Below, in pieces: positions 1 through 30,261 of a DNA stretch of 64,000 nt (position 1 is the stretch's first letter; every line of letters begins with the position of its first letter). The translations under genes and the position numbers were made by a program. The stretch comes from Limisphaerales bacterium. Its GTDB lineage: Bacteria; Verrucomicrobiota; Verrucomicrobiia; Limisphaerales; UBA11358. Location of the stretch: assembly GCA_003134375.1 (NCBI GenBank), contig PLAY01000065.1, forward strand, positions 158 to 64,157, in the 5' to 3' direction. The notes beneath the pieces are model-generated. The model was not told the origin of the DNA, did not search any database, and worked only from the letters and a program-made list of their open reading frames with translations.

Positions 1-238
1 CAGAACCGGCCATGGCCTGATGCATGGTATCGGGGCAAAGGTCAACGCCACCAGGCCATTCAACGCAGCCGAAATCGGGATTGACGGTGACGGCGTTAAA
101 AATCCGCGGGTCGAGCAATTTCAGAAACACGCCGCCGCGCCGTTCGGGTTCAACGGGAAAAATCCCGCTCACGCCGTCGTTGAAGGTGACCTTCAACCGG
201 CAGTCCGGCAACGGTTCGGCGGAAACAATCCGATTCAT
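1..238 (-). CDS. DUF2442 family protein, partial (3' end lies beyond window start)
   Basis: Not in the ORF track because there is no stop in the window. Reverse-strand ATG at 238..236. My translation MNRIVSAEPLPDCRLKVTFNDGVSGIFPVEPERRGGVFLKLLDPRIFNAVTVNPDFGCVEWPGGVDLCPDTMHQ fits the DUF2442 pattern (V.F.DG ... WP.G.DL.PD). It lies about 10 nt downstream of its usual DUF4160 partner. Confidence 0.7.
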   Translation of the reverse strand, partial: MNRIVSAEPLPDCRLKVTFNDGVSGIFPVEPERRGGVFLKLLDPRIFNAVTVNPDFGCVEWPGGVDLCPDTMHQAMAGS

Positions 239-247
239 GTCTTTATT

Positions 248-508
248 CTACTCCAAAGGCGGGATTTTGGAAGGCTCTTGATTGCGGCTGGCCATGTCCC
301 ATGCCCGCCGCAGTTCCGTGCGATGCAACGCCGCCCATTCGAGCACCAGCGCCTGCGCGCGGCGGGTCATTTCGCCATCAATGACTTCAAGGGTGTTGAT
401 GTTCACCTTGATTTGCTCGCCTTGATAAACGGCATGAAAATGCGGCGGCGCATGGTCGCCATAAAACATGCGGATGATGATCCCGTAAAACCGGCTCAAT
501 TCAGGCAT
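248..508 (-). CDS. DUF4160 family protein
   Basis: 86-aa ORF. The N-terminus MPELSRFYGIIIRMFYGDHAPPHFHAVY carries the DUF4160 signature (FYGI.I.M...DH.PPHFH). Forms a two-gene cassette with the DUF2442 gene. Confidence 0.8.
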   Translation of the reverse strand: MPELSRFYGIIIRMFYGDHAPPHFHAVYQGEQIKVNINTLEVIDGEMTRRAQALVLEWAALHRTELRRAWDMASRNQEPSKIPPLE

Positions 509-622
509 GTCGGGAGATTATTTAATTTCAAATGGCAGGCAAGGTCTTTGCAAACGGCTGCCATCCGCCTGCGCCGCTCCGTCTTGACTTTTCGCATCCC
601 GCCTGCCATTGAAGGCTTCACC

Positions 623-1189
623 ATGAACCACAAGAAATCTTGCCTGCCAGGACTGCTGGCGTTACCAATACTGGCCATGCTGATGAATGCTCCCAACGTG
701 CCCGCCCAAGACAAACCGGCTGTTCCCGTACCCGACGCCGGCAAACCCCAGCCGGTTGCGACCAGCGAGAAATCCGCCCTTGGTTTCGCTGAACTGGCGG
801 ACAAGGCGCTGCTGGCCATGCAGCAACGCGCAGCAGAACTCAAGGCCACCGGCGTGGCCGTGGTCGCCTTCAGCGAAGGCGACAGTGTCAAATCCTGGTC
901 GTCGAAAATGGTGGTGGTGGGCAATCTGAAAACCGGCCCTTCCAAAAACGATCCCGCCGGAGCGAACCTGCTCGGCATTGCCTATGCCAAGGCCGCGGAA
1001 ATGGCGGACACGCTCAAAGCCAGCGGCAGCGCGGGCCGGCCGCCTTTGAAAGGCGAGTTCGGCTGGCAGGGCGGAGTGGTGGCCAAGGGACGAACTGGAA
1101 TTTTGATCGCGGCCTTCAGCGGCGGCCCTTCCGCGGACGACGTAAAAATTTCCCAGGCCGGCCTTGCGGTCCTGACCCAATCGTTGTAA
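623..1189 (+). CDS. secreted GlcG/HbpS-like (DUF336) protein
   Basis: ATG at 623 inside track ORF 20..1189. Signal peptide MNHKKSCLPGLLALPILAMLMNAPNVPAQ. The C-terminal ILIAAFSGGPSADDVKISQAGL resembles the GlcG/HbpS G.IGVSGG...D motif. The upstream part of the track ORF overlaps the DUF4160 gene and is not coding. Confidence 0.55.
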   Translation: MNHKKSCLPGLLALPILAMLMNAPNVPAQDKPAVPVPDAGKPQPVATSEKSALGFAELADKALLAMQQRAAELKATGVAVVAFSEGDSVKSWSSKMVVVGNLKTGPSKNDPAGANLLGIAYAKAAEMADTLKASGSAGRPPLKGEFGWQGGVVAKGRTGILIAAFSGGPSADDVKISQAGLAVLTQSL

Positions 1190-1200
1190 TCGCCCCGCGC

Positions 1201-1725
1201 ATGAAAATTTTCTCCGCCATCATCCTGCTGGCTTTGACGGGCACGGTGGCCATGGCCCAGATCAAGCTGGCCGACATCAAGGAAGACGCGTGGTATTCGA
1301 TCGTCGCCTGTCACAGCGGCAAGGCGCTGGAAATCCAGGGCGCCGGCAAGGACAACGGCTTGCAGCTTCAGCAGAATGAACCCACCGGGGCGGACAACCA
1401 GCTCTTTCAGTTCAAACAAATCCAGAGCGGTTATTTCCAGATCACCGTCAAACACAGCGGCAAAGTTTTGGAAGTGAGGGACGGTTCGATGAAAGACCAT
1501 GCCGTGGTCCAGCAAAACGAGGTCAATGGAAAGGATTATCAACTGTTCACCGTGGTGAAGGAAACCAGCGGGAATTATCGGATCATCGCCCGGCACAGTG
1601 GCTACGGTTTCGACGTGCTCGGGGGTGTTAATGCCTTGAGCAACAACGTGCCGGTCGTCGTCTATCCCGCCACCGGCGCCAGAAACCAAACCTTCAAGCT
1701 GGTGGCGGCAAAACCGGGCGCGTGA
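1201..1725 (+). CDS. secreted ricin-type beta-trefoil lectin domain protein
   Basis: Signal peptide MKIFSAIILLALTGTVAMAQ. Three pseudo-repeats each end in a QxW/F-like motif (NQLFQF, YQLFTV, NQTFKL), with SGKALE / SGKVLE / SGYGFD strands. Confidence 0.7.
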   Translation: MKIFSAIILLALTGTVAMAQIKLADIKEDAWYSIVACHSGKALEIQGAGKDNGLQLQQNEPTGADNQLFQFKQIQSGYFQITVKHSGKVLEVRDGSMKDHAVVQQNEVNGKDYQLFTVVKETSGNYRIIARHSGYGFDVLGGVNALSNNVPVVVYPATGARNQTFKLVAAKPGA

Positions 1726-1792
1726 ACCATCCGATTCCGACGCGACAAACACATTTTTCGCGGTTGTTTTCTTTCAACCTTGCATGCCTTCA

Positions 1793-1820
1793 ATTCGCGT
1801 AAATTCGTGAAATTCGTGTC
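1793..1820. repeat. solo arm of the CACGAAT/CACGGAT repeat family (inverted orientation)
   Basis: ATTCGCGTAAATTCGTGAAATTCGTGTC is the reverse complement of GACACGAAT-type units seen at 5811-5840. There is only one arm, so the call is weak. Confidence 0.3.
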
Positions 1821-1885
1821 AAAGTCTTTCCGCCTCCAAAATTGAATTGTCCCCTGCTCCATTTCGCGGCAAACTTCCTGTTCCT

Positions 1886-3253
1886 ATGCAGCAGGTAAAT
1901 CTTGGCATGATCGGCGGGGGCACCGTGGGCAGCGGCGTGTTTCACGCACTCCAGCTCAACGGCGGCCTCATGGCCTCGCGCATCGGCGTGAAAGTCGCCG
2001 TCCGCAAAGTCGCCGTAAAGGCGTTCAATGAACCGCGGCCGTATCAAATCCCGCGTTCGCTCATGACGCTGGACTGGCAAAGCGTCGTCAACGATCCGCA
2101 GGTGGACATTGTCACCGAACTGGTCGGCGGCACGGGCATCGCCCGGACGATGGTTCTCGCGGCGCTCAAGCTCGGCAAACCGGTCGTCACGGCCAACAAG
2201 GCCCTGCTGTCCGCGCACGGCGAGGAATTGTTTGCCGCGGCCAAGAAATACGGCACGAATCTTTATTACGAGGCGAGCGTTTGCGGTGGCATTCCCATCA
2301 TCAAATCGCTGCGCGAAGGCTTTGTCGGCAACCGCATCGAAGCGCTGTACGGCATCGTCAACGGCACCTGCAATTACATCCTCACGCGGATGAAGCTGGA
2401 AGGCGCGGACTTCGACGCCGTGCTCACCGACGCGCAGAAGCAGGGTTACGCGGAGACGCCGCCGGACCTGGACATTGACGGCCACGATGCTGCGCACAAG
2501 ATCGGCATTCTTGCCTCGCTGGCGCATGGCTTTTGGGTGAACCCGAAGAAAATCCATGTCGAAGGCATCCGCCATGTTTCCGCATTGGACATCAAATTTG
2601 CCGGCGAGCTGGGGTACACGATCAAGCTCCTTGGGATTATCAAACGAATTGACGATTTACGATTGACGATTGACGCGACCAAAAACAAACCGGCGCGTAA
2701 ATCGAATATCGTAAATCGTAAATGCAAAGTGCAGGTTTCGGTTTATCCGACGCTGGTGCCCAATGCGCATGTTCTCGCCAGTGTGAACCACGTCTTCAAC
2801 GCCGTGTTTGTGCGCGGCGACATCGTCGGCGACACGTTGTTTTATGGGCGTGGCGCGGGCAAGGACGCCACCGCCAGCGCGGTGCTCAGCGACCTGGCCG
2901 ACGCGGCGTTGGATTTGAAATCCGGATGCAAACAGCGCGTGCCGCCGTTTGTGCCGCACGAATGCGCCGGGGCGGTGATGCCGATCGAGGACGCCGTCTC
3001 GCAGTATTTTCTCCGGCTCAACGTCGTGGACCGTCCGGGCACGCTGGCGAAGATCGCCGCCATTTTCGGCGCGGCGAAGATCGGCATCTCGTCCGTCATC
3101 CAGCCGGAAGGCCATGAAGGCAAAAGTGTGCCGCTGATTTTCATGATGCATTACGCGACCAACGGCGCGGTCAACGGCGCATTGAAAAAAATCAGCCGCT
3201 TGCCGGTCATCAAAGGCAAACCGGTGATGATTCGCGTCGAGAATTTTGAATGA
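1886..3253 (+). CDS. hom: homoserine dehydrogenase
   Basis: Start moved to ATG 1886 (MQQVNLGMIGGGTVGSGV, a Rossmann motif). Conserved NKALL, YYEASVCGGIPII, NGTCNYILT, PTLVP..H.LASV...FNAV and a C-terminal ACT-like region. Carries a 23-codon repeat-derived insertion (see 2655-2723). Confidence 0.92.
   Translation: MQQVNLGMIGGGTVGSGVFHALQLNGGLMASRIGVKVAVRKVAVKAFNEPRPYQIPRSLMTLDWQSVVNDPQVDIVTELVGGTGIARTMVLAALKLGKPVVTANKALLSAHGEELFAAAKKYGTNLYYEASVCGGIPIIKSLREGFVGNRIEALYGIVNGTCNYILTRMKLEGADFDAVLTDAQKQGYAETPPDLDIDGHDAAHKIGILASLAHGFWVNPKKIHVEGIRHVSALDIKFAGELGYTIKLLGIIKRIDDLRLTIDATKNKPARKSNIVNRKCKVQVSVYPTLVPNAHVLASVNHVFNAVFVRGDIVGDTLFYGRGAGKDATASAVLSDLADAALDLKSGCKQRVPPFVPHECAGAVMPIEDAVSQYFLRLNVVDRPGTLAKIAAIFGAAKIGISSVIQPEGHEGKSVPLIFMMHYATNGAVNGALKKISRLPVIKGKPVMIRVENFE
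2655..2723. repeat. 69-bp imperfect hairpin repeat (ATTTACGAT / ATCGTAAAT family), in frame in hom
   Basis: Left arm ATTTACGATTGACGATTGACGCG, right arm CGCGTAAATCGAATATCGTAAATCGTAAAT. A sibling copy with the same ends lies at 10024-10097. Length is 69 bp, or 23 codons. Confidence 0.8.
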
Positions 3254-3305
3254 TGACAAATATCGGCGAATTGCCTTTTGAAGCAAATTCAGCCATCTTA
3301 AAGAC

Positions 3306-3491
3306 ATGAGCGACAAGCAACTTGCCTTGAAAACGATTGAGCGCCTGCCCGACGACGCGAGTTTGGATGCCATCGCGCAACGGTTGGAATTCGTCGCCGG
3401 AATTCGCAAGGGCCTGGATCAAATCAAAAAAGGCGAGACCGTGCCGCACGAAGAGGTCAAACGCCAACTGGCGACATGGCTTTCAAAATAA
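3306..3491 (+). CDS. type II antitoxin (ParD/addiction-module antidote-like, family unresolved)
   Basis: 61-aa ORF overlapping the downstream ParE-like toxin by 16 nt. Small helical acidic protein with an ERLPDDASLD motif. Confidence 0.65.
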   Translation: MSDKQLALKTIERLPDDASLDAIAQRLEFVAGIRKGLDQIKKGETVPHEEVKRQLATWLSK

Positions 3492-3790
3492 TCTGGTCGG
3501 AACAGGCGCGGGAGGATTTGCGGGAGATCGTTACTTTCATTGCTCTCGACAATCCGACTACGGCTGAGTCTTTTGGATATTTGCTGATGACGAAGGTGGA
3601 TGCGCTGGCGCAATTTCCACGATTGGGACGGGTTGTGCCGGAAGAAGATGATGAAGATATTCGAGAAATCATTTTTCGTTCATATCGGATTGTTTATCAG
3701 GTGATTGAGAAACAGCAGGTTGTGGCCATCGCGCGGATCTGGCACGGTGCGCGGGGCGAGCCTGAAATTCCTGAGCGGTTGAAATTTTAA
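3476..3790 (+). CDS. RelE/ParE family toxin
   Basis: 104 aa. IIWSEQAREDLREIVTFIALDNP...FPRLGRVVPE...IREIIFRSYRIVYQV......IARIWHGAR matches the ParE toxin pattern. Confidence 0.8.
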   Translation: MAFKIIWSEQAREDLREIVTFIALDNPTTAESFGYLLMTKVDALAQFPRLGRVVPEEDDEDIREIIFRSYRIVYQVIEKQQVVAIARIWHGARGEPEIPERLKF

Positions 3791-3792
3791 TC

Positions 3793-5007
3793 ATGTTGAT
3801 TGTTCAAAAATACGGCGGCACTTCGGTCGGCAACCCCGACCGCATCAAAAACGTCGCGGCGCGCGTGGCCAAATATCGCGCGCTGGGCGACCAGATCGTC
3901 GTCGTCGTGTCCGCGATGAGCGGTGTGACGGATAATTTGATCAAGCTGGCCAAGGAAATCATGCCGCTGCCCAGCGAGCGCGAGATGGATGTGCTGCTCG
4001 CGACCGGCGAGCAGCAGACCATCGCGCTCACGGCCATTGCGCTGCACGCGTTGAACGTGCCAGCGGTGTCGCTCACCGGTCCGCAGGCGGGCATCGTCAC
4101 CGACGTGGTTCACACCAAGGCCAAAATTCACAACATCACGCCGAAGAAAGTTCACGAGCTTTTGAAGCAGGGCAACGTCGTCATCGTCGCCGGTTTTCAG
4201 GGCGAGACGCCGGAAGGCCAGATCACGACGCTAGGCCGCGGCGGTTCGGATTTGACGGCCATTGCGCTTGCCGCCGCGCTCAAGGCCGACCTCTGCCAGA
4301 TTTACACGGACGTGGACGGCGTCTATACCGCCGACCCGCGCATCGTGCCAACCGCGAAGAAGCTCGAAGAGATTTCCTACGACGAAATGCTCGAACTGGC
4401 CAGCCTCGGCGCGAAGGTGATGCAGAGTCGCTCGGTTGAATTTGCCAAAAAATTCGGAGTGGTCTTTGAAGTCCGCTCCAGTCTCAATGAAAACCCCGGA
4501 ACCATTGTGAAAGAAGAAACTAAAAGCATGGAAGGCGTCGTTGTGCGCGGCGTCTCGCTCGACAAAAACCAGGCCAAAATCACGCTCGTCGGCGTGCCCG
4601 ACAAGCCCGGCGTGGCCGCGCGCATTTTCAAGGCGCTCGGCGACGCGACCGTGAACGTGGACATGATCGTGCAAAACATCAGCCACGGCACCGGCACGCC
4701 CCAGACGGACATTTCCTTCACGGCGGACAAGCCGGATTTGCTCAAGGCACAGAAGGTCATTGACGGCCTGAAAAGCGAACTCGGCCTGCGCGAAATGATC
4801 ACCGCTGAGAAAATCGGCAAGCTGTCCATCGTGGGCGTCGGCATGAAGAGCCACACGGGCGTGGCTGGAAAACTGTTTGATACGCTGGCCCGGGAAGGCG
4901 TGAATATTGACATGATTTCGACGAGCGAAATTAAAATTTCCGTCGTCATCGATCTGGCCAAGGGCGAAGCCGCGATGAAGGCCGTTCACGCGGCGTTCAT
5001 TGGCTGA
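3793..5007 (+). CDS. lysC: aspartate kinase
   Basis: MLIVQKYGGTSVG kinase N-terminus, GRGGSDLTA, IYTDVDGVYTADPR, and two C-terminal ACT repeats (KISLVG/LSIVGVGM). Confidence 0.95.
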   Translation: MLIVQKYGGTSVGNPDRIKNVAARVAKYRALGDQIVVVVSAMSGVTDNLIKLAKEIMPLPSEREMDVLLATGEQQTIALTAIALHALNVPAVSLTGPQAGIVTDVVHTKAKIHNITPKKVHELLKQGNVVIVAGFQGETPEGQITTLGRGGSDLTAIALAAALKADLCQIYTDVDGVYTADPRIVPTAKKLEEISYDEMLELASLGAKVMQSRSVEFAKKFGVVFEVRSSLNENPGTIVKEETKSMEGVVVRGVSLDKNQAKITLVGVPDKPGVAARIFKALGDATVNVDMIVQNISHGTGTPQTDISFTADKPDLLKAQKVIDGLKSELGLREMITAEKIGKLSIVGVGMKSHTGVAGKLFDTLAREGVNIDMISTSEIKISVVIDLAKGEAAMKAVHAAFIG

Positions 5008-5008
5008 A

Positions 5009-5647
5009 ATGAATCATTGTTCCTATTGTGGAAAGGAATATGCCGATGATGTCATTGTTTGTCCGGTTGACGGGCGGCCGGTCATAAACCAGGAGGAAAA
5101 ACAAGGAAAGTTCGCGGCCCAACCTAAAGCCACTAAAACAGCATTCAATGTCAAACTGGTTTCTCCCCTTTCGTCCGCCGGCAAATACCGGGTTTTTGTT
5201 GAACGGAGCGATCTGCTTTTCATTCAGGTTGAGGGCGGATCAAGATCCATTTTGGAAGCGGCGGCTCCTTTTATCGGCCCGGCTGGCAATATAATTCCAC
5301 TGACCCTGTGGCTGTTCGGCAAAAGAAAAACCAAAGCGAAACTCCAACGTCTTGAAACAGGCGACCCGGAGGAATTGCTTCGCGAAAGCGAAAATAATTT
5401 CAAGTTGAACCTGGCCGAAATTCGCGACGCCGCCATCGAAGCCCCGGCTTTTTTTCAGACCAGCGGAAAAGCCGGGCGGCTGAACTTTTCAGTGCGGCAT
5501 GGAGAGAAAATCAAGTGCGAGTTTGATAATGCCACAGAAATGAACAATGCGATTCGCTTGCTCGCCCCGCTGTTGTCTTCAACTTTGAAAGTGAACGTGG
5601 AATGGAACGGCGAAAAACAACGATTTGAAAGAAAGAAAACGATTTGA
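5009..5647 (+). CDS. hypothetical protein with N-terminal zinc ribbon
   Basis: The ATG at 5009 gives MNHCSYCGKEYADDVIVCPVDG (CxxC...CP). I do not recognise the remaining ~190 aa. The track start at 5000 is a TTG overlapping the lysC stop. Confidence 0.6.
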   Translation: MNHCSYCGKEYADDVIVCPVDGRPVINQEEKQGKFAAQPKATKTAFNVKLVSPLSSAGKYRVFVERSDLLFIQVEGGSRSILEAAAPFIGPAGNIIPLTLWLFGKRKTKAKLQRLETGDPEELLRESENNFKLNLAEIRDAAIEAPAFFQTSGKAGRLNFSVRHGEKIKCEFDNATEMNNAIRLLAPLLSSTLKVNVEWNGEKQRFERKKTI

Positions 5648-5675
5648 CCCGACGAATCCATACTGCTATCTTTAC

Positions 5676-5750
5676 AAGGTGAATCGCAATTTGAATCTGA
5701 ACCTGCTGCTAAACGTGCTGCGGTTGTGCCGCGCGGCGGTTGGGTTCTGA
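5676..5750 (+). promoter_or_regulatory. candidate Leu-rich leader peptide ORF for leuA attenuation
   Basis: AAGGTG (5676-5681), then TTG 5691 (or in-frame GTG 5679) and a stop at 5748-5750. The peptide is (MNRN)LNLNLLLNVLRLCRAAVGF with 6-7 Leu codons, including CTG CTG CTA at 5703-5711. It is followed by an antiterminator/terminator pair and lies upstream of leuA. Confidence 0.4.
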
Positions 5751-5770
5751 TTGCGTTCGAATAATTTGAG

Positions 5771-5803
5771 AACCCCACTGCCAGACGGCGGTGGGGTTTT
5801 TTG
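5771..5803 (+). terminator. rho-independent terminator
   Basis: AACCCCACTGCC (5771-5782), loop AGAC, GGCGGTGGGGTT (5787-5798). This is a 12-bp stem with one G-T pair, running into a six-T run (5797-5802). Confidence 0.8.
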
Positions 5804-5806
5804 CTT

Positions 5807-6034
5807 TTAACCACGAATGAACACGAATAGACACGAATGGCAAAAGCCGGAGCCGGCGGAGCGCGGCTGTGTCCCGCAAAGCGGGATCAGCCGCAGCGCG
5901 TCCACTTGCAGAGAAGTCTCACGCAAGTTCCAACGCTTCAACCGCAGCGTGGCTGCTGCGACTGGTGCTATGCACACCGTCGCGCTCCGGCGGCGCATTT
6001 TATCCGTGTCCATCCGTGTTTATCCGTGGTTTAA
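5807..6034. repeat. TTAA-ended inverted-repeat element (CCACGRAT family), copy E1
   Basis: Left arm TTAACCACGAATGAACACGAATAGACACGAATGG. Right arm TATCCGTGTCCATCCGTGTTTATCCGTGGTTTAA. The arms are reverse complements apart from A/G transitions. About 160 bp of GC-rich core. Lies between the terminator and the leuA start. Confidence 0.75.
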
Positions 6035-6054
6035 TTCCGTCAACACCTGAGTTT

Positions 6055-7710
6055 ATGCACAAACAACCGTCAAAAAAATACCGGCCGTTCCCGGCGCCCA
6101 GCCTGCCCGACCGGCAGTGGCCGAACCGCGTCCTTACCCACGCGCCCATCTGGTGCAGCGTGGACTTGCGCGATGGCAATCAGGCGCTCGCCGTGCCCAT
6201 GAACGTCGGCCAGAAGCTCGAATTGTTCCAGACGCTCGTGAAAATTGGCTTCAAGGAAATCGAAATCGGCTTTCCGGCCGCGTCGAACACGGAATTCGCA
6301 TTCAACCGCCGGCTCATCGAGGAAAATCGCGCGCCGGACGACGTGTGGCTCCAGGTGCTCGTGCAGGCGCGTGAAGAGTTGATCGAGCGCACGTTCGAAT
6401 CACTCGTCGGCGCGAAGAAGACCATCATCCACCTTTACAATTCCACTTCGCCCGCCCAGCGCCGCGTTGTGTTCGGGAAATCGAAGCAGGAAATCATCGA
6501 AGTCGCCGTGCAGGGCGCCAAGTGGGTCCGGGAGCGATTGCCCCGGCTCAAGGGCACGAAGGTCATGCTCCAATATTCCCCGGAGAGCTTCAGCTCCACC
6601 GAGGTCGAATTTGCCCGGGAAATTTCCGAGGCGGTCATGGCGGTCTGGCAGCCCACGCCGCAGCGAAAAATGATCCTGAACCTGCCCGACACCGTCGAGA
6701 TCGCCACCCCGAACGTCTATGCCGACCAGATTGAATGGATGTGCCGGAACCTCAAAAACCGCGAGTCGCTCATCATCAGCCTCCACGGGCACAACGACCG
6801 CAGCACGGGCGTGGCGGCGACGGAGCTGGGCCTGCTCGCCGGCGCGGACCGCGTCGAAGGCACGCTCTTCGGCAACGGCGAGCGCACCGGCAATCTCGAC
6901 ATCGTCACCGTGGCGCTGAACTTGTACATGCACGGCGTCCATCCCGGACTGGATTTCAGCGACCTGAATTCCATCATCGAGGTCTATGAACGGTGCACGG
7001 GCATGACGGTGCCGCCGCGCCATCCGTACGCGGGCGAACTCGTCTTCACCGCGTTCAGCGGGTCGCACCAGGACGCCATCCGCAAGGGATTGCACGAATG
7101 GAAAGAGGGCAAACGCGAACACTGGGACGTGCCGTATCTCACCATTGACCCGACGGACATCGGGCGCGAATACCGCGAGATCATTCGCGTCAACAGCCAG
7201 TCCGGCAAAGGTGGCGTGGCGTATTTGTTGGAGAGCCAGTTCGGCATCGAGTTGCCCAAGGACATGCAGCGCGAGTTCGGCCCGATTGCCAATGACGAGG
7301 TGGACAAGCTTGGACGCGAAGTCACCGCCGCCGAATTGAAGGCGATGTTCTGGCACGAATACATCGAACGCAACAAGCCATGGCAGCTCAAGCGTTTTGA
7401 AACCGAGAGCAAAAACGGCGTCGTCCGTTGCCGCGCAAAATTTTTGCGCGACGGCAAGCCGGTCGAACTTTCCGGCGAAGGCAACGGCCCGCTCGCCGCG
7501 CTCGTCCACGGTTTCAGCAAAATCGGTGTGTCGCGTTTTGAAATTGCCAATTACAGCGAGCATGCTTTGAGTTCCGGCGAAGAGGCCGTGGCGATTGCTT
7601 ACATTCAAATCAAGCACGCCGATGGCAAAACCCGCTGGGGCGCGGGCGTGGACACGAACATCGAGCTTGCCTCCGTGCGCGCCGTGTTGAGCGCACTGAA
7701 CCGGTCGTAA
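6055..7710 (+). CDS. leuA: 2-isopropylmalate synthase (long form)
   Basis: Start at ATG 6055 (MHKQPSKKYRPF). WCSVDLRDGNQAL, HGHNDRSTGVAATELGLLAGADRVEGTLFGNGERTGN, and a C-terminal LeuA dimerisation/regulatory domain. The track ORF start at 5869 runs through the repeat and is rejected. Confidence 0.93.
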   Translation: MHKQPSKKYRPFPAPSLPDRQWPNRVLTHAPIWCSVDLRDGNQALAVPMNVGQKLELFQTLVKIGFKEIEIGFPAASNTEFAFNRRLIEENRAPDDVWLQVLVQAREELIERTFESLVGAKKTIIHLYNSTSPAQRRVVFGKSKQEIIEVAVQGAKWVRERLPRLKGTKVMLQYSPESFSSTEVEFAREISEAVMAVWQPTPQRKMILNLPDTVEIATPNVYADQIEWMCRNLKNRESLIISLHGHNDRSTGVAATELGLLAGADRVEGTLFGNGERTGNLDIVTVALNLYMHGVHPGLDFSDLNSIIEVYERCTGMTVPPRHPYAGELVFTAFSGSHQDAIRKGLHEWKEGKREHWDVPYLTIDPTDIGREYREIIRVNSQSGKGGVAYLLESQFGIELPKDMQREFGPIANDEVDKLGREVTAAELKAMFWHEYIERNKPWQLKRFETESKNGVVRCRAKFLRDGKPVELSGEGNGPLAALVHGFSKIGVSRFEIANYSEHALSSGEEAVAIAYIQIKHADGKTRWGAGVDTNIELASVRAVLSALNRS

Positions 7711-7876
7711 TCAAATGACACGCCAAAGCATGGACACCAATCGTTTGGTGTTCATCCTTCCGGGTGTTCGGACAGGAAAGGAAACCGCCGGTAGGCGACA
7801 CCCGCCAGCGGCATTATGTTTGTAATCAAGCCATTTTCGGCTCGTCAAATAGTGACGAATGGTTTAGTTTCCAGAC

Positions 7877-8884
7877 TTGGCTATGAAATTACAGCGCATT
7901 TTTGTTTGCGGAGTCGCGGGCATCGTTCTTGCCGGCGGAAGACTTCTGGCAGCGGACGGCAACCCCACCAACGCGGCGGCGGCCACTGCGGCGGTTTATG
8001 TGCCGGACACCTCGCATCAAAACGACCCGTTGCCCGATGGCGTGCTGGCTTGGAACAGCCTGACGCAGGATGCCACGGTGGCGGCGGATGCCGGCAATGC
8101 CCATTTTGTTTTCAGCTTCACCAACATCGCAACGGTTCATGAAACCGCCTTGGTCACCAACGTCACGACCGTCACCAACATCACGGCGGTCACCAATTCG
8201 TTTTTTTTCTGGTTCAAAAAAATTTCCTCCGTCACCAACTTTTCCACGGCCACCAGCATCACGACGAACAACGTTACCAAGCCGGTTCCCGTGGCCTTTC
8301 TGGAGGTTCATCCCGGGTGTCAATGCACCACCACAGAGTTGCCGCCGTTGCCTTGGATCATTCCGGCCGGCACAAACGCGCAGTTTGGCGTCGCGGTCAA
8401 CCTGGCGGGAAGAACCGGAATGCAGGTCAAGACGGTCAATGTCAAGACCGACAAGGGTTTCAAACAACTCATCCTCAAAATCAACATTCTGCCGCCGGTG
8501 GTTCCAACCCAGTCCGATGCCGACCGCGCGCACGCCCTGGAAATGGCCAAAGCCGACCGGCAGACGGTTTTTCAAGGTGATTGCGCAACCTGCCACGTCA
8601 AACCCGGCACGGGCAAATACGGCAAGCCGCTTTCCGACGCCGTCTGTGCCATCTGTCACGAATCCAAAACGCGCGCCAGCATGGTGCCGGATTTGCACAA
8701 CATCAAAACCCCGACCAATGTGGATTTCTGGCAAACCTGGATTGCGCATGGCAAGGCCGGCTCCCTCATGCCCGCGTTTTCCACCGCCGATGGCGGTCCG
8801 CTCTCGGATATGCAAATCGCCTCCCTCGCCGGTTATCTGAACATGGCAATCCCATCGCAAACCGCGCCGCCGCCGGCCCAATGA
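7877..8884 (+). CDS. secreted DUF1573-like domain protein fused to a c-type cytochrome domain
   Basis: Signal peptide. FVFSFTN ... HPGCQCTT ... resembles the DUF1573 F.F.N...SCGCT core. The C-terminus has two CxxCH motifs (CATCH, CAICH) and SLMPAF. The DUF1573 core is interrupted by a ~60-aa VTN-rich segment. Confidence 0.6.
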   Translation: MAMKLQRIFVCGVAGIVLAGGRLLAADGNPTNAAAATAAVYVPDTSHQNDPLPDGVLAWNSLTQDATVAADAGNAHFVFSFTNIATVHETALVTNVTTVTNITAVTNSFFFWFKKISSVTNFSTATSITTNNVTKPVPVAFLEVHPGCQCTTTELPPLPWIIPAGTNAQFGVAVNLAGRTGMQVKTVNVKTDKGFKQLILKINILPPVVPTQSDADRAHALEMAKADRQTVFQGDCATCHVKPGTGKYGKPLSDAVCAICHESKTRASMVPDLHNIKTPTNVDFWQTWIAHGKAGSLMPAFSTADGGPLSDMQIASLAGYLNMAIPSQTAPPPAQ

Positions 8885-8914
8885 TGTCCGCTTGCGGAAT
8901 TTGATCCACGCGAT

Positions 8915-10012
8915 ATGCTGTCAACCATGACAGCATACATGCTTGACGCAAACATCCCGACCCGCATTGCGGAGCTGGGACAACGGGTTTTGAACGGCGG
9001 CCACATCACACGCGATGAGGCATTGTGGCTGTTTGACATCGAAAGAACGGGGGATATTTTCGATTTGCTGTCGTGGGCGAACCGCATCCGGGGAAAATTC
9101 AAGGGCAACAAAATCCACCTCTGCTCCATCGTCAACGCCAAGGCGGGCGCGTGCCCGGAAAATTGCAGTTTTTGCGCGCAATCGTCGCATTACCAGACCG
9201 GCTCGCCCAAATATGGCTTTGTGGATCCCGAACCCGTGGCCGAAGCCGCCGAGGAAGCGAACCGTAACAACGTGACGGCCGTCGGGATCGTCGCCGCTTG
9301 GAAAGGTCTCAATGAAGGCCCAATGCTCGATGAGGTTTGCGCCCGGGTGCGCGAGCTGAAAGCCGGCGGCAAGACCCGACCGGACGTTTCGCTCGGCATC
9401 ATCAAAAGCCGGCGCGTGGCCGACCGGCTCAAGGAAGCCGGCGTCGAGTGCTACGGCCACAACCTCGAAAGTTCGCGCCGCTTTTTTCCGCAGACCTGCA
9501 CCACGCACACCTACGACGAACGCCTGGAAACCATCAGCCATTTGAAAAAGGCCGGCATCAAGATTTGTTCCGGCGGCATCATCGGCATGGGCGAAACCCG
9601 CGAAGACCGCTGCGACCTCGCGTTTGAATTGAAAGCCATCGGCGCGAACGTCGTACCGGTAAACATCCTCAATCCGATTCCCGGCACACCATTTGAAAAA
9701 AACGATCCCCTGCCCGTCCTGGAAATCTTGAAAACCATTGCCTGCTTCCGTTTCATTTTGCCGCGGCAGGAAATCTTGATCGCCGGCGGACGCACGGTGA
9801 ACCTGCGCGACGCGCAGAGCATGGTTTTCATGGCCGGCGCGAGCGCGCTCATGGTCGGCAATTATCTCACCACGCTCAACCAACCCGTCGAGAAAGACCT
9901 GCAAATGCTCAAGGACCTCGGCCTCGACCCGAGCTGGGACAGCCATGGTTTCAGCGACCAGGAAGCGTGTGATTGCAGACAGGAGACCGAAGCGGCTTGT
10001 ACAATTTCTTGA
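8915..10012 (+). CDS. bioB: biotin synthase
   Basis: Radical-SAM motif GACPENCSFCAQS, plus CYGHNLESS, ICSGGIIGMGE and NPIPGTPFE. Confidence 0.93.
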   Translation: MLSTMTAYMLDANIPTRIAELGQRVLNGGHITRDEALWLFDIERTGDIFDLLSWANRIRGKFKGNKIHLCSIVNAKAGACPENCSFCAQSSHYQTGSPKYGFVDPEPVAEAAEEANRNNVTAVGIVAAWKGLNEGPMLDEVCARVRELKAGGKTRPDVSLGIIKSRRVADRLKEAGVECYGHNLESSRRFFPQTCTTHTYDERLETISHLKKAGIKICSGGIIGMGETREDRCDLAFELKAIGANVVPVNILNPIPGTPFEKNDPLPVLEILKTIACFRFILPRQEILIAGGRTVNLRDAQSMVFMAGASALMVGNYLTTLNQPVEKDLQMLKDLGLDPSWDSHGFSDQEACDCRQETEAACTIS

Positions 10013-10023
10013 TGGTCGGATGA

Positions 10024-10097
10024 ATTTACGATTTGCGATTTACGATTGACGCGATTTTGGTGTTTGACTCGTAATTCGTATATCGTAAATCGTAAAT
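10024..10097. repeat. 74-bp hairpin repeat (ATTTACGAT / ATCGTAAAT family), intergenic copy
   Basis: ATTTACGATTTGCGATTTACGATTGACGCG ... CGTAATTCGTATATCGTAAATCGTAAAT. Same termini as the in-frame hom copy. Confidence 0.8.
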
Positions 10098-10098
10098 T

Positions 10099-10902
10099 AT
10101 GGAAAGGCTCGGCAAAAATCACGGCGGCTATCACGGCGAGGCGATTGACATCCGCGCCGTCCTGCGCGACATCGAAACCGCCGCGCAACAACACGGCTGG
10201 GCATTCGAGCCGTTTGGGAAGCAGGGCGAATTCAACCTGCCCGCCCTCCATCGGCCCTCAACCCTCAACTCCTTGGCGCGGCGAAACGAAGTGGAGACGG
10301 CTCAACCCTCAACCAGGATTTACCTAAGCACCGGCATTCATGGCGACGAACCGGCCGGGCCGCTCGCTGCGTTGCGCCTGCTCCAGGAAAACCAATGGCC
10401 GGCGAACGCCGAACTGTGGTTTTGCCCGTGCCTGAATCCGATGGGTTTCGTTTTGAACCGGCGAGAGAACGACCAGGGCATTGACCTCAACCGGCAATAC
10501 CGGCACCTGGAGGCGGCGGAGACGCGCACACACATTGCCTGGCTGGAGCGCCAGCCGCAGTTCGACCTCTGCCTCTGCCTGCACGAAGACTGGGAATCGC
10601 ACGGCTTTTACATTTACGAATTGAATCCGGAAAAGCGGCCATCGCTGGCCGAAAACATGATTGCGCGCATCGCAGAAGTCTGCCCGATTGACCCATCTGA
10701 AATCATCGAGGACCGCCCGGCGCGGAACGGCATCATCCGTCCGAACCTCGACCCTGCCACGCGACCGCAATGGGCTGAGGCATTTTACCTGATCGTGAAC
10801 AAGACAAGATTGTCCTACACCCTCGAAGCGCCGTCGGATTTTCCGTTGACCACCCGCGTCAACGCACTCGTCGCCGGCGTGAACGCCGCGCTGGCAACGT
10901 AG
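10099..10902 (+). CDS. M14 / succinylglutamate desuccinylase-aspartoacylase-like zinc hydrolase
   Basis: LSTGIHGDEPAGP (HxxE zinc motif) and a downstream LCLHEDWES. About 267 aa. Contains the repeat-derived segment STLNSLARRNEVETAQPST. Confidence 0.6.
   Translation: MERLGKNHGGYHGEAIDIRAVLRDIETAAQQHGWAFEPFGKQGEFNLPALHRPSTLNSLARRNEVETAQPSTRIYLSTGIHGDEPAGPLAALRLLQENQWPANAELWFCPCLNPMGFVLNRRENDQGIDLNRQYRHLEAAETRTHIAWLERQPQFDLCLCLHEDWESHGFYIYELNPEKRPSLAENMIARIAEVCPIDPSEIIEDRPARNGIIRPNLDPATRPQWAEAFYLIVNKTRLSYTLEAPSDFPLTTRVNALVAGVNAALAT
10257..10314 (+). repeat. CTCAACyCTCAAC-flanked ~58-bp element, in frame in the M14-like gene
   Basis: CTCAACCCTCAACTCCTTGGCGCGGCGAAACGAAGTGGAGACGGCTCAACCCTCAACC. 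About 50/58 nt match the copy at 26978-27035 (reverse strand). Confidence 0.7.
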
Positions 10903-10923
10903 GACAGGCATCCTGCCTGTCTC
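10899..10923. terminator. GTAGGACAGGC-type hairpin unit between convergent genes (possible bidirectional terminator)
   Basis: GTAGGACAGGCATCCTGCCTGTCTC has the stem GACAGGC/GCCTGTC. The TAG stop of the M14-like gene (10900-10902) lies inside the unit. The same unit occurs twice in gcvP. There is no T-run, so terminator function is uncertain. Confidence 0.4.
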
Positions 10924-10938
10924 GCATCCGTTTCAAAC

Positions 10939-11376
10939 CTATTCCGCGTCCCTTTGTTTCATCCAAACCTTGCCGAGTTCGACGAGCGTTTCCTTTTTCA
11001 TCACTTTCTCGGCCAGCGGGAAAACAATCCGTTCCTCGCGGTCGAAGTGTTTGCGCGATGCGGTCACGGCCCGCAGCAGCAACTGTTGCGCTTCGGGCAG
11101 CCGCTTGGCGGTCTTCACCCGCAACAGGCTGTCGTCAATTTCCCGGTGTTCGTGTTCAAAACTGTCGCGCTGGCCAAGTTGTTCCAAATAATGATTCAGG
11201 GGAGCGAATACCAAATCTTCCTCAGCCTTGCCGTGGGCGAGCAACAGGTTTTCCATCAGTTCCGCCCAGCCCACCACCTCGGCCAGCGTTTTCAGTTTCG
11301 GCAGGACGTGTTCGATGTGGTCAAAAATGTTGTGGAACACGACGTGTTCCGCCAAAAGCGCTTCGGTGATCTTCAT
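10939..11376 (-). CDS. hemerythrin (HHE cation-binding) domain protein
   Basis: Start at MKITEALLAEHVVFHNIFDHIE (ATG 11376). His/Glu-rich helices (EHEHREID, LLAHGKAEED) are typical of hemerythrin-like proteins. Confidence 0.65.
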   Translation of the reverse strand: MKITEALLAEHVVFHNIFDHIEHVLPKLKTLAEVVGWAELMENLLLAHGKAEEDLVFAPLNHYLEQLGQRDSFEHEHREIDDSLLRVKTAKRLPEAQQLLLRAVTASRKHFDREERIVFPLAEKVMKKETLVELGKVWMKQRDAE

Positions 11377-11455
11377 GGTCAAAGTCCGTTTAACTTTATC
11401 CCATTTATCAATAGCGCGATACGGCAAATTCCGCCAGACGTTTCTTAGCTTTTTT

Positions 11456-11559
11456 CAACCACACATGAACACGGATGCGGTGGAGCGAATGTTTCTGTGT
11501 CGTGCATCGCATTCCGACTGCTCTCACTCCAATCCGTGTCTATCCGTGTCCATCCGTGG

Positions 11560-11563
<4 letters not shown>
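11456..11563. repeat. TTAA-ended inverted-repeat element (CCACGRAT family), short copy E2
   Basis: Left arm TCAACCACACATGAACACGGATG. Right arm AATCCGTGTCTATCCGTGTCCATCCGTGGTTAA. The terminal TTAA (11560-11563) contains the gcvP stop codon. Confidence 0.7.
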
Positions 11564-14667
<3,104 letters not shown>

Positions 14668-28842: not shown

Positions 28843-30261
28843 TCACTCCAAAATTGCCGGGTCGCCGTAGAGCGTGAAGGAACCGGCGCGGGTGATTTTC
28901 ACGTCCAGAAGCTGGCCGCGATGCTCCCGCCCTGCGGGATCAAACACCACTATCTTGTTGCAGCGCGTCCGGCCGGTCATCCGCGCCGGATTCTTCCGAC
29001 TCGGCCCTTCGACCAGAATCTGGGTCCGCCGCCCGACGAACGCATCGTATTTGCGCCTGCCGATTCCATTGACCGTTTCGAGCAGGCGATGGTTGCGCTG
29101 CTCGCGGATTTTTTGCGGCACCTGGCCGGGCATGTCCGCGGCGGGCGTGTCGCGGCGCTGCGAGTATTTGAAGATGTAAGCGTTGTCGAATTCCACTTCG
29201 CGCGCTAGCGAAAGGGTTTGCTCGAAGTCGTCCTCCGTCTCGCCGGGGAACCCGACGATGATGTCCGTTGTGATGCCGATGTCCGGTTTCGCGCGGCGCA
29301 ATTTTTTGATGAGGCCGAGGAAGCGTTCGCGCGTGTAGCCGCGGTGCATCAATTTCAAGACGCGGTCACTGCCGCTTTGGACGGGCAGGTGCGCGCTTTC
29401 GACCAGCTTGGGCAGCCGCGTGTAAGCCTCAATCAAATCGTCGCCGTAGCCTTTCGGATGCGGCGCAGCGAAACGGATGCGTTCCAGTCCTTCAATTTCG
29501 TGGACGGCATCGAGCAGTTGGACGAAGGGGGTTTTCGTGGTCGAGGGTCGAGCGTCGAGCGTCGAGGGCAGGAAGATTTCTGGCTCTCGACCCTCGACCT
29601 TCGTCTCTCGACTGCTTCCGCCCCGTTTGCCATAGCTCGTTACAATTTGCCCGAGCAAGGTGATTTCCTTCACACCCTGTGACACAAGCTGCCGGCATTC
29701 AGCCACGATGTCAGGAATGCCGCGGCTGCGTTCCTCGCCGCGCGTGTCAGGCACGATGCAAAACGTGCAACGCTGGTTGCAGCCCTGCATGATGCTAACA
29801 TACGCGGTGACGGATTTCTGAGCGTTTCCGTTGAGCAGATGCTCGCGAATGGTCGCTTCGCTGCCCTGCTCCACCGCCACATCCACGATTTTATCGCGGT
29901 GACCGGCCAGGATTTCGTCGAGGTAATCCGCCGCGTGATGAAATTTTTGCGTGCCCAGGACAAGGTCCACGTCCGGCAGACGGTCAATGAGTTCCTGCCC
30001 GCGGCTTTGCGCCATGCAACCCATGAAACCGAGCACAACGTCCGGACGGTTCTTGCGCGCATCCGCCGCGAGGTTTTGCATTTTGCCAATCGCCTTTTTC
30101 TCCGCGAAATCGCGCACGCTGCAGGTGTTCAGCAAAATCACGTCGGCAGCCGCCTCGGATGGCGCGAGCGTGTAACCCTTGGCGACGAGCTGGGCGGCGA
30201 CGGCCTCGCTGTCGCGCTCATTCATCTGGCAGCCATAGGTTTTGATGAAAACACTGGGCAT
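28843..30261 (-). CDS. miaB: tRNA-i6A37 methylthiotransferase
   Basis: KTYGCQMNERDSE, radical-SAM motif GCNQRCTFCIVP, and a C-terminal TRAM domain. Carries a ~25-aa repeat-derived insertion. Confidence 0.93.
   Translation of the reverse strand: MPSVFIKTYGCQMNERDSEAVAAQLVAKGYTLAPSEAAADVILLNTCSVRDFAEKKAIGKMQNLAADARKNRPDVVLGFMGCMAQSRGQELIDRLPDVDLVLGTQKFHHAADYLDEILAGHRDKIVDVAVEQGSEATIREHLLNGNAQKSVTAYVSIMQGCNQRCTFCIVPDTRGEERSRGIPDIVAECRQLVSQGVKEITLLGQIVTSYGKRGGSSRETKVEGREPEIFLPSTLDARPSTTKTPFVQLLDAVHEIEGLERIRFAAPHPKGYGDDLIEAYTRLPKLVESAHLPVQSGSDRVLKLMHRGYTRERFLGLIKKLRRAKPDIGITTDIIVGFPGETEDDFEQTLSLAREVEFDNAYIFKYSQRRDTPAADMPGQVPQKIREQRNHRLLETVNGIGRRKYDAFVGRRTQILVEGPSRKNPARMTGRTRCNKIVVFDPAGREHRGQLLDVKITRAGSFTLYGDPAILE
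29537..29612. repeat. ~76-bp palindromic repeat (TCGAGGGTCGAG family), in frame in miaB
   Basis: TCGAGGGTCGAG (29541-29552) is the perfect reverse complement of CTCGACCCTCGA (29586-29597), flanked by further CGTCGAG / CTCGAC units. Encodes SSRETKVEGREPEIFLPSTLDARPSTT. Confidence 0.7.

Follow-up and report, generated by a model that had tools for sequence, protein, structure and literature searches.

We analysed a window of 64,000 nucleotides (nt) from a Limisphaerales bacterium (contig PLAY01000065.1), in which the homoserine dehydrogenase gene, hom, carries within its reading frame a hairpin whose two arms consist of 7-base repeats. The genome from which the window comes (G000, hereafter the source genome) is a draft of 4.16 Mb in 201 contigs, 93% complete, where hom has a single match. 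The gene and the parts of the element are listed below, with the arrays called by Tandem Repeats Finder (TRF).

1886 to 3253, forward strand: hom (homoserine dehydrogenase); frame open from 1847, probable start at the ATG at 1886 (MQQVNLG...)
2648 to 2723, forward strand: the whole hom element, a hairpin of 76 bp with two arms of 7-base repeats
2648 to 2675, forward strand: left arm, ATTGACG ATTTACG ATTGACG ATTGACG, encoding I-D-D-L-R-L-T-I-D; TRF (ATTGACG)x4.0, period 7
2676 to 2695, forward strand: hairpin centre (loop), CGACCAAAAACAAACCGGCG
2696 to 2723, forward strand: right arm, CGTAAAT CGAATAT CGTAAAT CGTAAAT, encoding R-K-S-N-I-V-N-R-K; TRF (CGTAAAT)x4.0

The open reading frame (ORF) 1847-3253 encodes 468 amino acids with Pfam matches to NAD_binding_3, Homoserine_dh and ACT, and among solved structures it matches PDB 3mtj (E 3e-98). 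Hom homologues at 84-97% identity also start with MQQVNLG, and the names of the close homologues point to Verrucomicrobiota. Within this otherwise intact and conserved gene the element is in frame and free of stops, and encodes the peptide LRLTIDATKNKPARKSNIVNRKC; the variant second unit of its right arm, CGAATAT, avoids a TAA that would otherwise fall in frame. A preliminary description of the window had reported a hairpin repeat of 69 bp adding exactly 23 codons to hom. The hairpin and the in-frame addition were both found again, with other sizes: TRF extends the copy by one heptamer at the left, and the net gain relative to alleles lacking the element (“empty” alleles) is 63 nt, or 21 codons. 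The predicted fold is a long imperfect hairpin (−32.9 kcal/mol, z −5.7), equalled by none of 200 shuffled sequences.

The HMMER alignment to 3mtj is interrupted precisely at the insert (query 269/295, chain 262/265), which is the single gap in the alignments to solved Hom structures. An AlphaFold2 run with 52 close homologues gave a predicted local distance difference test score (pLDDT) below 50 for residues 142-341, and its secondary-structure call alone was used; in this low-confidence model the insert falls between strands E257-267 and E295-305. It is reasonable to place it in the turn of a beta-hairpin, as had been proposed.

The turn was then compared among relatives. A set of 86 hom alleles was assembled from contigs of metagenomes and assemblies, and the stretch from KLLG to VQVSVYP was scored in each; part of the metagenome contigs were chosen with an insert-internal peptide, so that type A (see below) is enriched in this sample. 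The empty turn, 30 nt encoding K-K-I/L-x-G-G-C-R, was found in 28 of the 86 alleles. Filled turns fell into 12 length classes (48, 57, 63, 66, 69, 72, 81, 84, 87, 90, 93 and 96 nt), and the length was divisible by three in 86/86 alleles. The same insert is present in a relative at 94% protein identity (G017), and the nearest outgroups on the Hom tree, G001 and G022, have the short turn. Close relatives without the element show a turn of 3-4 residues, and not the 23 residues first ascribed to the insert. The filled alleles are of several types:

Type A (this window): left arm ATTGACG/ATTTACG, right arm CGTAAAT
Type B: left arm (ATTGCCG)4, right arm (CCGAAAT)4
Hybrid alleles: left arm ATTGCCG, right arm CGTAAAT
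Type C: left arm (GTCGAGG)4, right arm absent or (GAACTCC)4
Other alleles: left arm (GCGGAAA)4, right arm absent

Within the genus, the hom insert of the window thus occurs alongside empty alleles and alleles made of other heptamers. Farther genomes of the order have still other units at the same turn (GCGCAAA, CCCAAAG, AAGCAGA, CCGGCCT), and where ATTGCCG and CCGAAAT arrays occur, they are also dispersed in the genome concerned. Four independent allele pairs are separated by exactly 21 nt, equal to three units or seven residues (93/72, 90/69, 87/66 and 84/63), and a three-unit step is the only change in unit number that preserves the frame. In the hom gene of G011, a relative assembled in 9 contigs (L029, G011:C4:1001076-1002477), a type-B insert is frameshifted, with 91 nt instead of 90 and one surplus base in the centre, which reflects either an assembly error or a pseudogene. 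A phase-variation switch by heptamer slippage was considered for hom and rejected, G011 differing by a single base of the centre and not by a unit, and the other 86 alleles being in frame. This strict conservation of the frame argues that the hom copy is read through rather than cut out. Because it is open, in frame, and set in a gene whose remainder is under purifying selection (see below), the insert is most likely read in the protein, where it would add a loop of 21 residues.

A second copy of the repeat had been placed at 10024-10097, between the following genes:

8915 to 10012, forward strand: bioB (biotin synthase; Pfam Radical_SAM, BATS), upstream neighbour of the intergenic hairpin
10024 to 10097, forward strand: intergenic sibling hairpin, between bioB and the AstE/AspA-like gene; TRF (ATTTACG)x4.0 at 10024-10051 and (TCGTAAA)x4.1 at 10069-10097
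10099 to 10902, forward strand: AstE/AspA-like (M14-type) gene (Pfam), downstream neighbour, with CCCTCAA heptamers at about 10255-10316 (TRF)

Both repeats lie where they had been reported, and their resemblance is well beyond shuffled expectation: the 16-mer ATCGTAAATCGTAAAT, when at most 2 mismatches are allowed, has 8 matches in the window, all of them within the hom and intergenic elements, compared to 0.02 in shuffles. The intergenic element is a true sibling of the hom element and, as also announced, a long imperfect hairpin (−29.6 kcal/mol, z −3.7; 0/200 shuffles equal). Its right arm stops 1 nt ahead of the downstream ATG at 10099. An orthologous hairpin occupies the same site, 1-4 nt from the ATG, in five further genomes (G022, G067, G049, G047 and G089), and in G016 and G056 the two genes are adjacent and the hairpin is absent. 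Over the six genomes the left arm is almost constant, in a surrounding region that is just 75-80% identical. At the same spot downstream of bioB, G087 (L262, G087:C45) has a different, unrelated heptamer hairpin, CGCAAAG/CTTTGCG. A terminator role of the intergenic hairpin was rejected, no terminator-like site having been found. The region of the AstE/AspA-like gene matches many places in relatives.

These two copies belong to a dispersed family of hairpin repeats, as the preliminary description had supposed. The source genome contains about 52 clusters of the ATTTACG array, some 25 of which are full hairpins of 60-100 bp, and the ATTTACG dimer is present in 57 of 61 genomes of the genus (reversed-pattern controls, 0 or 1 per genome). 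Sub-families of the element have common centres and outer flanks, and the odd second unit of the hom right arm is also matched by copies on contigs C170 and C124. Seven is the commonest TRF period in the source genome, with 633 arrays, compared to 453 and 358 for periods 9 and 12. Counting exact arrays of at least 3 units, period 7 has 88, periods 6 and 8 have 12 and 3, and shuffled sequences have none. The period-7 arrays fall into 199 unit families, and 76 adjacent pairs of arrays are inverted complements. Of the arrays, 29% lie where the frame stays open over at least 80 codons to either side, versus 57% of random positions, and 21 paired-array hairpins lie within such open ORFs, among them one in a MiaB-like gene of the window (see below). 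The ATTTACG family was not found to have a built-in open frame: its copies average about 1.7 open frames out of 6, which is nothing special. A search of Rfam with positions 1-12000 of the window gave no match at E values up to 1.

Arrays in the CGTAAAT sense end within 12 nt of the start of a long ORF in 25 of 100 cases in the source genome, compared to 8/100 in the opposite sense and 14% of random positions, a proximity akin to that of the TAACTGA repeats, which have been published as lying ahead of start codons. Exact (ATTTACG)3 was also seen in Bacteroidota, Chloroflexota, Acidobacteriota, Armatimonadota, Desulfobacterota, Cyanobacteria and other Verrucomicrobiota (loci L031-L110). At three places of the source genome (C42:9899-10104, C64:22083-22164 and C64:61376-61443), ATTTACG hairpins are nested in a larger palindrome with outer arms AGCAGCCGACGTGAGGCTC / GAGCCTCCTCACGTCGGCTGCT, from which the repeats appear to be modular.

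One member of the family bears a gene:

Source-genome contig C53, 3749-4208 (L313:250-709): cassette of 460 bp with 38-nt ATTTACG/CGTAAAT arms, 87% complementarity

The arms of this cassette enclose a 124-aa ORF of family PF05635 (23S_rRNA_IVP, a four-helix-bundle protein). The cassette is squeezed, in sense orientation, between a cdsA-like and a dxr-like gene, and the ATG of dxr overlaps one arm end. Compared to its arms, those of the hom element are identical at 27/30 bases (left) and 28/30 bases (right), the odd second unit included. All 6 PF05635 genes of the source genome lie between inverted heptamer arrays, each with a different unit, and these units rank 1, 2, 3, 13, 35 and 47 in abundance among the 199 families. 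In other genera of the order, 16 of 30 PF05635 loci had period-7 arrays on both sides, all 16 of them inverted, whereas none of 56 control windows shifted by 900 nt had period-7 arrays on both sides. A comparable arrangement is on record for the 23S rRNA intervening sequence (IVS) of Coxiella, where a 28-bp stem, with tandem heptamers that vary in copy number, encloses an S23p ORF (PMC4990558). Since the ATTTACG/CGTAAAT arms also bracket the PF05635 gene on C53, the short hairpins probably relate to the cassette roughly as ORF-less to ORF-bearing intervening sequences.

The same data bear on a home-grown origin, in which a native 7-nt word of hom would have been amplified in place by slipped-strand replication, template switching would have produced the inverted arm, the repeat would never have been mobile, and the turn would be merely tolerant. 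Empty alleles hold single copies of the words ATTGGCG, GTCGAGG (L228) and CTGGAAAGCGG, GGAAAGC being among the native words, and in filled alleles the corresponding place is taken by (ATTGNCG)4, (GTCGAGG)4 and (GCGGAAA)4. Roughly one half of the period-7 arrays come from unit families that are small or have a single member, and slippage of heptamers has already been published (Mrazek 2007, as related in PMC4679880). However, the right arm of hom, with its idiosyncratic second unit, agrees at 28/30 bases with the C53 cassette and with copies on C170 and C124, centres and outer flanks are common to the members of a sub-family, and one 7-nt duplication breaks the frame, so that growth inside hom would require three units to be gained together. 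We consider such an in-place origin of the whole insert quite unlikely, although the native ATTGGCG, GTCGAGG and GGAAAGC words of empty alleles leave room for origins that would be guided by microhomology or partly home-grown.

To analyse rates, nucleotide diversity (pi) was computed per site class over 28 orthologous type-A alleles. Outside the insert, hom is under ordinary purifying selection, with pi of 0.134 at first, 0.083 at second and 0.388 at third codon positions. In the 20 nt of the hairpin centre pi was 0.384, versus the 0.388 of third codon positions, and in successive bins the centre/third-position divergences were 0.10/0.11, 0.22/0.25, 0.40/0.36, 0.42/0.44 and 0.45/0.51. Since the divergence of the centre tracks that of third positions, the centre is neutral; and since it diverges at the synonymous rate, the insert has long been passed on together with the gene. 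The peptide encoded by the centre is free to vary (pi of 0.42 at first and 0.26 at second positions). In the arms, pi was 0.115 and 0.154, without codon periodicity. This conservation is in heptamer phase, with pi of about 0.05 at the junction core CGAT and 0.26-0.41 at mid-unit positions. Selection of the hairpin for pairing was rejected: 86.0% of cells were paired versus 86.2% in shuffles, and double changes and the covariation score were below shuffles. As judged from these alignments, what is constrained is the nucleotide sequence of the arms and not the peptide nor, demonstrably, the pairing, and the peptide of the insert is under no selection at the protein level.

The rates speak to two functional explanations. 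If the 21 extra residues formed a new regulatory or interaction surface of Hom, the persistence of the insert across synonymous divergences of up to about 0.5 would be accounted for. But the peptide can change freely at its centre, the arms lack codon periodicity, and alleles that are empty or encode an unrelated peptide (VEGRGSRVEG, ADCRLPIAD...) are scattered among near-identical Hom proteins, so that an adaptive loop is highly improbable. Alternatively, the arms may be kept because they are useful to the cell as nucleic acid, for instance as an array bound by a heptamer reader (a PF05635 pentamer), as an RNase III site or as a translational pause. The slow, heptamer-phased evolution of the arms speaks for such a signal, and so do the near-constancy of the left arm of the intergenic sibling and the tendency of CGTAAAT-sense arrays to abut start codons. 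However, no compensatory changes were detected, presence and absence are freely polymorphic in close relatives, and many unrelated units act alike, which goes beyond a single sequence-specific reader. A signal serving the host appears improbable to us.

The distribution of the alleles was examined on the Hom tree. Loop state was near-random, with 21 changes versus 23.9 with shuffled labels, and constraining the empty alleles to one clade was rejected (approximately unbiased test, p-AU 8e-50). Among alleles less than about 3% divergent, the same loop length was found with a frequency of 0.78; above about 3%, this frequency was at the chance level of 0.25. Close pairs with unlike loops showed mosaic differences, some of them next to the loop (e.g. 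13/60 nt, L169 vs L223). Distances between classes equalled those within classes in all flanking windows but one, the 60 nt upstream, where their ratio was 1.11. This suggests that several old loop alleles have been exchanged within the genus by homologous recombination. Counting independent gains on the Hom tree was discarded as invalid, given the almost random loop state and the mosaic differences.

We conclude that the hom insert is probably a gene-less, translated, IVS-like passenger copy of a family of heptamer-armed hairpins, tolerated by the enzyme. In this scheme, an element has lodged in the turn of the Hom beta-hairpin and is kept open and in frame, its length changes in three-unit (21-nt) steps, and the loop alleles would be shuffled among lineages by homologous recombination. 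The arms would be held near the family consensus by a process acting at the nucleotide level, perhaps gene conversion from the approximately 50 other arrays or an element-encoded binding protein, and the insert would be a passenger and not an adaptation. Several observations weigh against this conclusion. The arms are about three times more conserved than synonymous sites, which is unexpected for a purely dead passenger. No transposase, target-site duplication or observed movement was seen for the hom family. Filled alleles differ from empty ones by the replacement of about 9 nt of native sequence and not by a simple insertion. Finally, the first unit, ATTGACG/ATTGGCG, is similar to a word native to empty alleles, ATTGGCG, and part of the left arm could be home-grown.

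A more specific model assigns to every heptamer family a PF05635 protein of its own (Avd-like, pentameric), made from the loop of a master copy, which would read some 4-5 heptamers of an arm and promote arm copying or gene conversion. We hold this to be possible, though rather unlikely. If true, it would explain why arms stay close to the consensus while centres drift, why the three most abundant unit families of the source genome have gene-bearing copies, why one protein turn is re-used by different families, and why 23S rRNA intervening sequences exist. The model would then describe a novel, transposase-free type of mobile element in bacteria.

Several known systems resemble the passenger element that we propose. 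Rickettsia palindromic elements (RPEs; Ogata et al. 2000/2002) are, as related in PMC10969869, in-frame palindromic repeats in genes, of about 150 bp and with a conserved encoded peptide. As with RPEs, a dispersed palindromic family has copies in frame in unrelated housekeeping genes, most likely translated, with the host protein intact. RPEs differ by their length, their conserved peptide, and arms that are not tandem short repeats, whereas the hom family has arms of 4 x 7 nt, a free centre and a gene-bearing form, and occurs in a different phylum. By these descriptions, the hom insert is an analogue of the RPEs and not a member.

The S23p intervening sequences of Coxiella burnetii and Leptospira share with the hom family a long inverted-repeat stem in which the copy number of tandem heptamers varies (PMC4990558), a loop that carries a PF05635/S23p gene (here in the C53 cassette, with the arms of hom), a patchy distribution, the re-use of the same insertion spots and the lack of a known mobility enzyme. 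Unlike the ORF-bearing S23p sequences, the hom copy has no ORF and lies within a protein-coding gene; the S23p sequences sit in helix 25 or 45 of 23S rRNA, and the copies studied here in hom, in the gap between bioB and the AstE-like gene and in the gap between cdsA and dxr.

Short tandemly repeated repetitive (STRR) heptanucleotide sequences were reportedly described in cyanobacteria by Mazel in 1990. Repeats of this kind resemble the present ones in that tandem heptamers are dispersed, with several unit families per genome, often just upstream of start codons and with an excess of period 7. They are described mainly as intergenic direct arrays, and inverted hairpins, in-frame copies in enzymes and a link to PF05635 are absent from those descriptions. 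An excess of heptanucleotides in bacteria and the TAACTGA repeats have been published (Mrazek 2007, through PMC4679880; PMC4692102).

Transposable elements of the miniature inverted-repeat type (MITEs) and hairpins of paired repetitive extragenic palindromes (REPINs) are likewise small, non-coding inverted-repeat elements present in many copies (for sources on MITEs, on repetitive extragenic palindromes, REPs, and on their associated tyrosine transposases, RAYTs, see PMC3184786 and PMC3733652; REPs within genes are on record). With terminal inverted repeats of 28-30 nt and lengths of 60-100 bp, the elements are within the 50-500 bp range of MITEs. No MITE-type target-site duplication was found, either between filled and empty hom alleles, where native sequence is replaced, or at the bioB intergenic site. 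No transposase-bearing parent was found either, the only gene-bearing relative, on C53, encoding the PF05635 four-helix-bundle protein. A link to REP/RAYT was rejected: among eight Y1_Tnp matches, two small RAYT/IS200-like genes are flanked by unrelated GC-rich REP-like palindromes, not by heptamers. Their positions in the source genome are:

C25, 3623-3967: small Y1_Tnp gene, flanked by GC-rich palindromes
C50, 1327-1671: small Y1_Tnp gene, flanked by GC-rich palindromes

In-frame palindromic repeats (RPEs, REPs in genes) and heptamer excess are therefore already known (PMC10969869, PMC3733652, PMC4679880). In the literature consulted, we found no description of heptamer-armed hairpins translated inside Verrucomicrobia enzymes, nor of the PF05635 link beyond Coxiella. 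New here are the population-level rate analysis and the direct match of arms between a translated copy and a gene-bearing cassette. The preliminary description had missed the tandem-heptamer nature of the arms, the other heptamer arrays at the same turn in relatives, and the gene-bearing form of the family.

If our conclusion holds, a core biosynthetic enzyme can carry translated repeat DNA whose peptide is invisible to selection over a long evolutionary time, and many 7-base arrays across a genus may share a single protein turn as the place where they land or are kept. The combination of a neutral centre, heptamer-phased conservation of the arms and absence of covariation offers a quantitative handle on how such elements are maintained. 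The link to the PF05635 cassette would tie translated hairpins inside genes to the long-unexplained intervening sequences of 23S rRNA, and points to a testable pairing between protein and repeat. For annotation, such inserts should not be taken for assembly errors, pseudogenes or new domains.

The window contains a second in-frame heptamer hairpin, in another gene:

28843 to 30261, reverse strand: MiaB-like gene, a 472-aa ORF spanning the hairpin, with UPF0004, Radical_SAM and TRAM
29539 to 29612, reverse strand: second in-frame heptamer hairpin of the window, (GGTCGAG)4.3/(CTCGACC)3.9 (TRF), in the Radical_SAM domain of the MiaB-like gene

Next to hom, a ParE-family toxin gene (Pfam E 1.6e-21) is found at 3476-3790, between hom and the aspartate kinase gene (3793-5007), and the 220-nt gap ahead of it (3254-3475) could house an antitoxin. 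Farther away, at 53182-53931, the window contains a tandem duplication of 381 bp, in 2.0 copies with 78% matches (TRF score 954).

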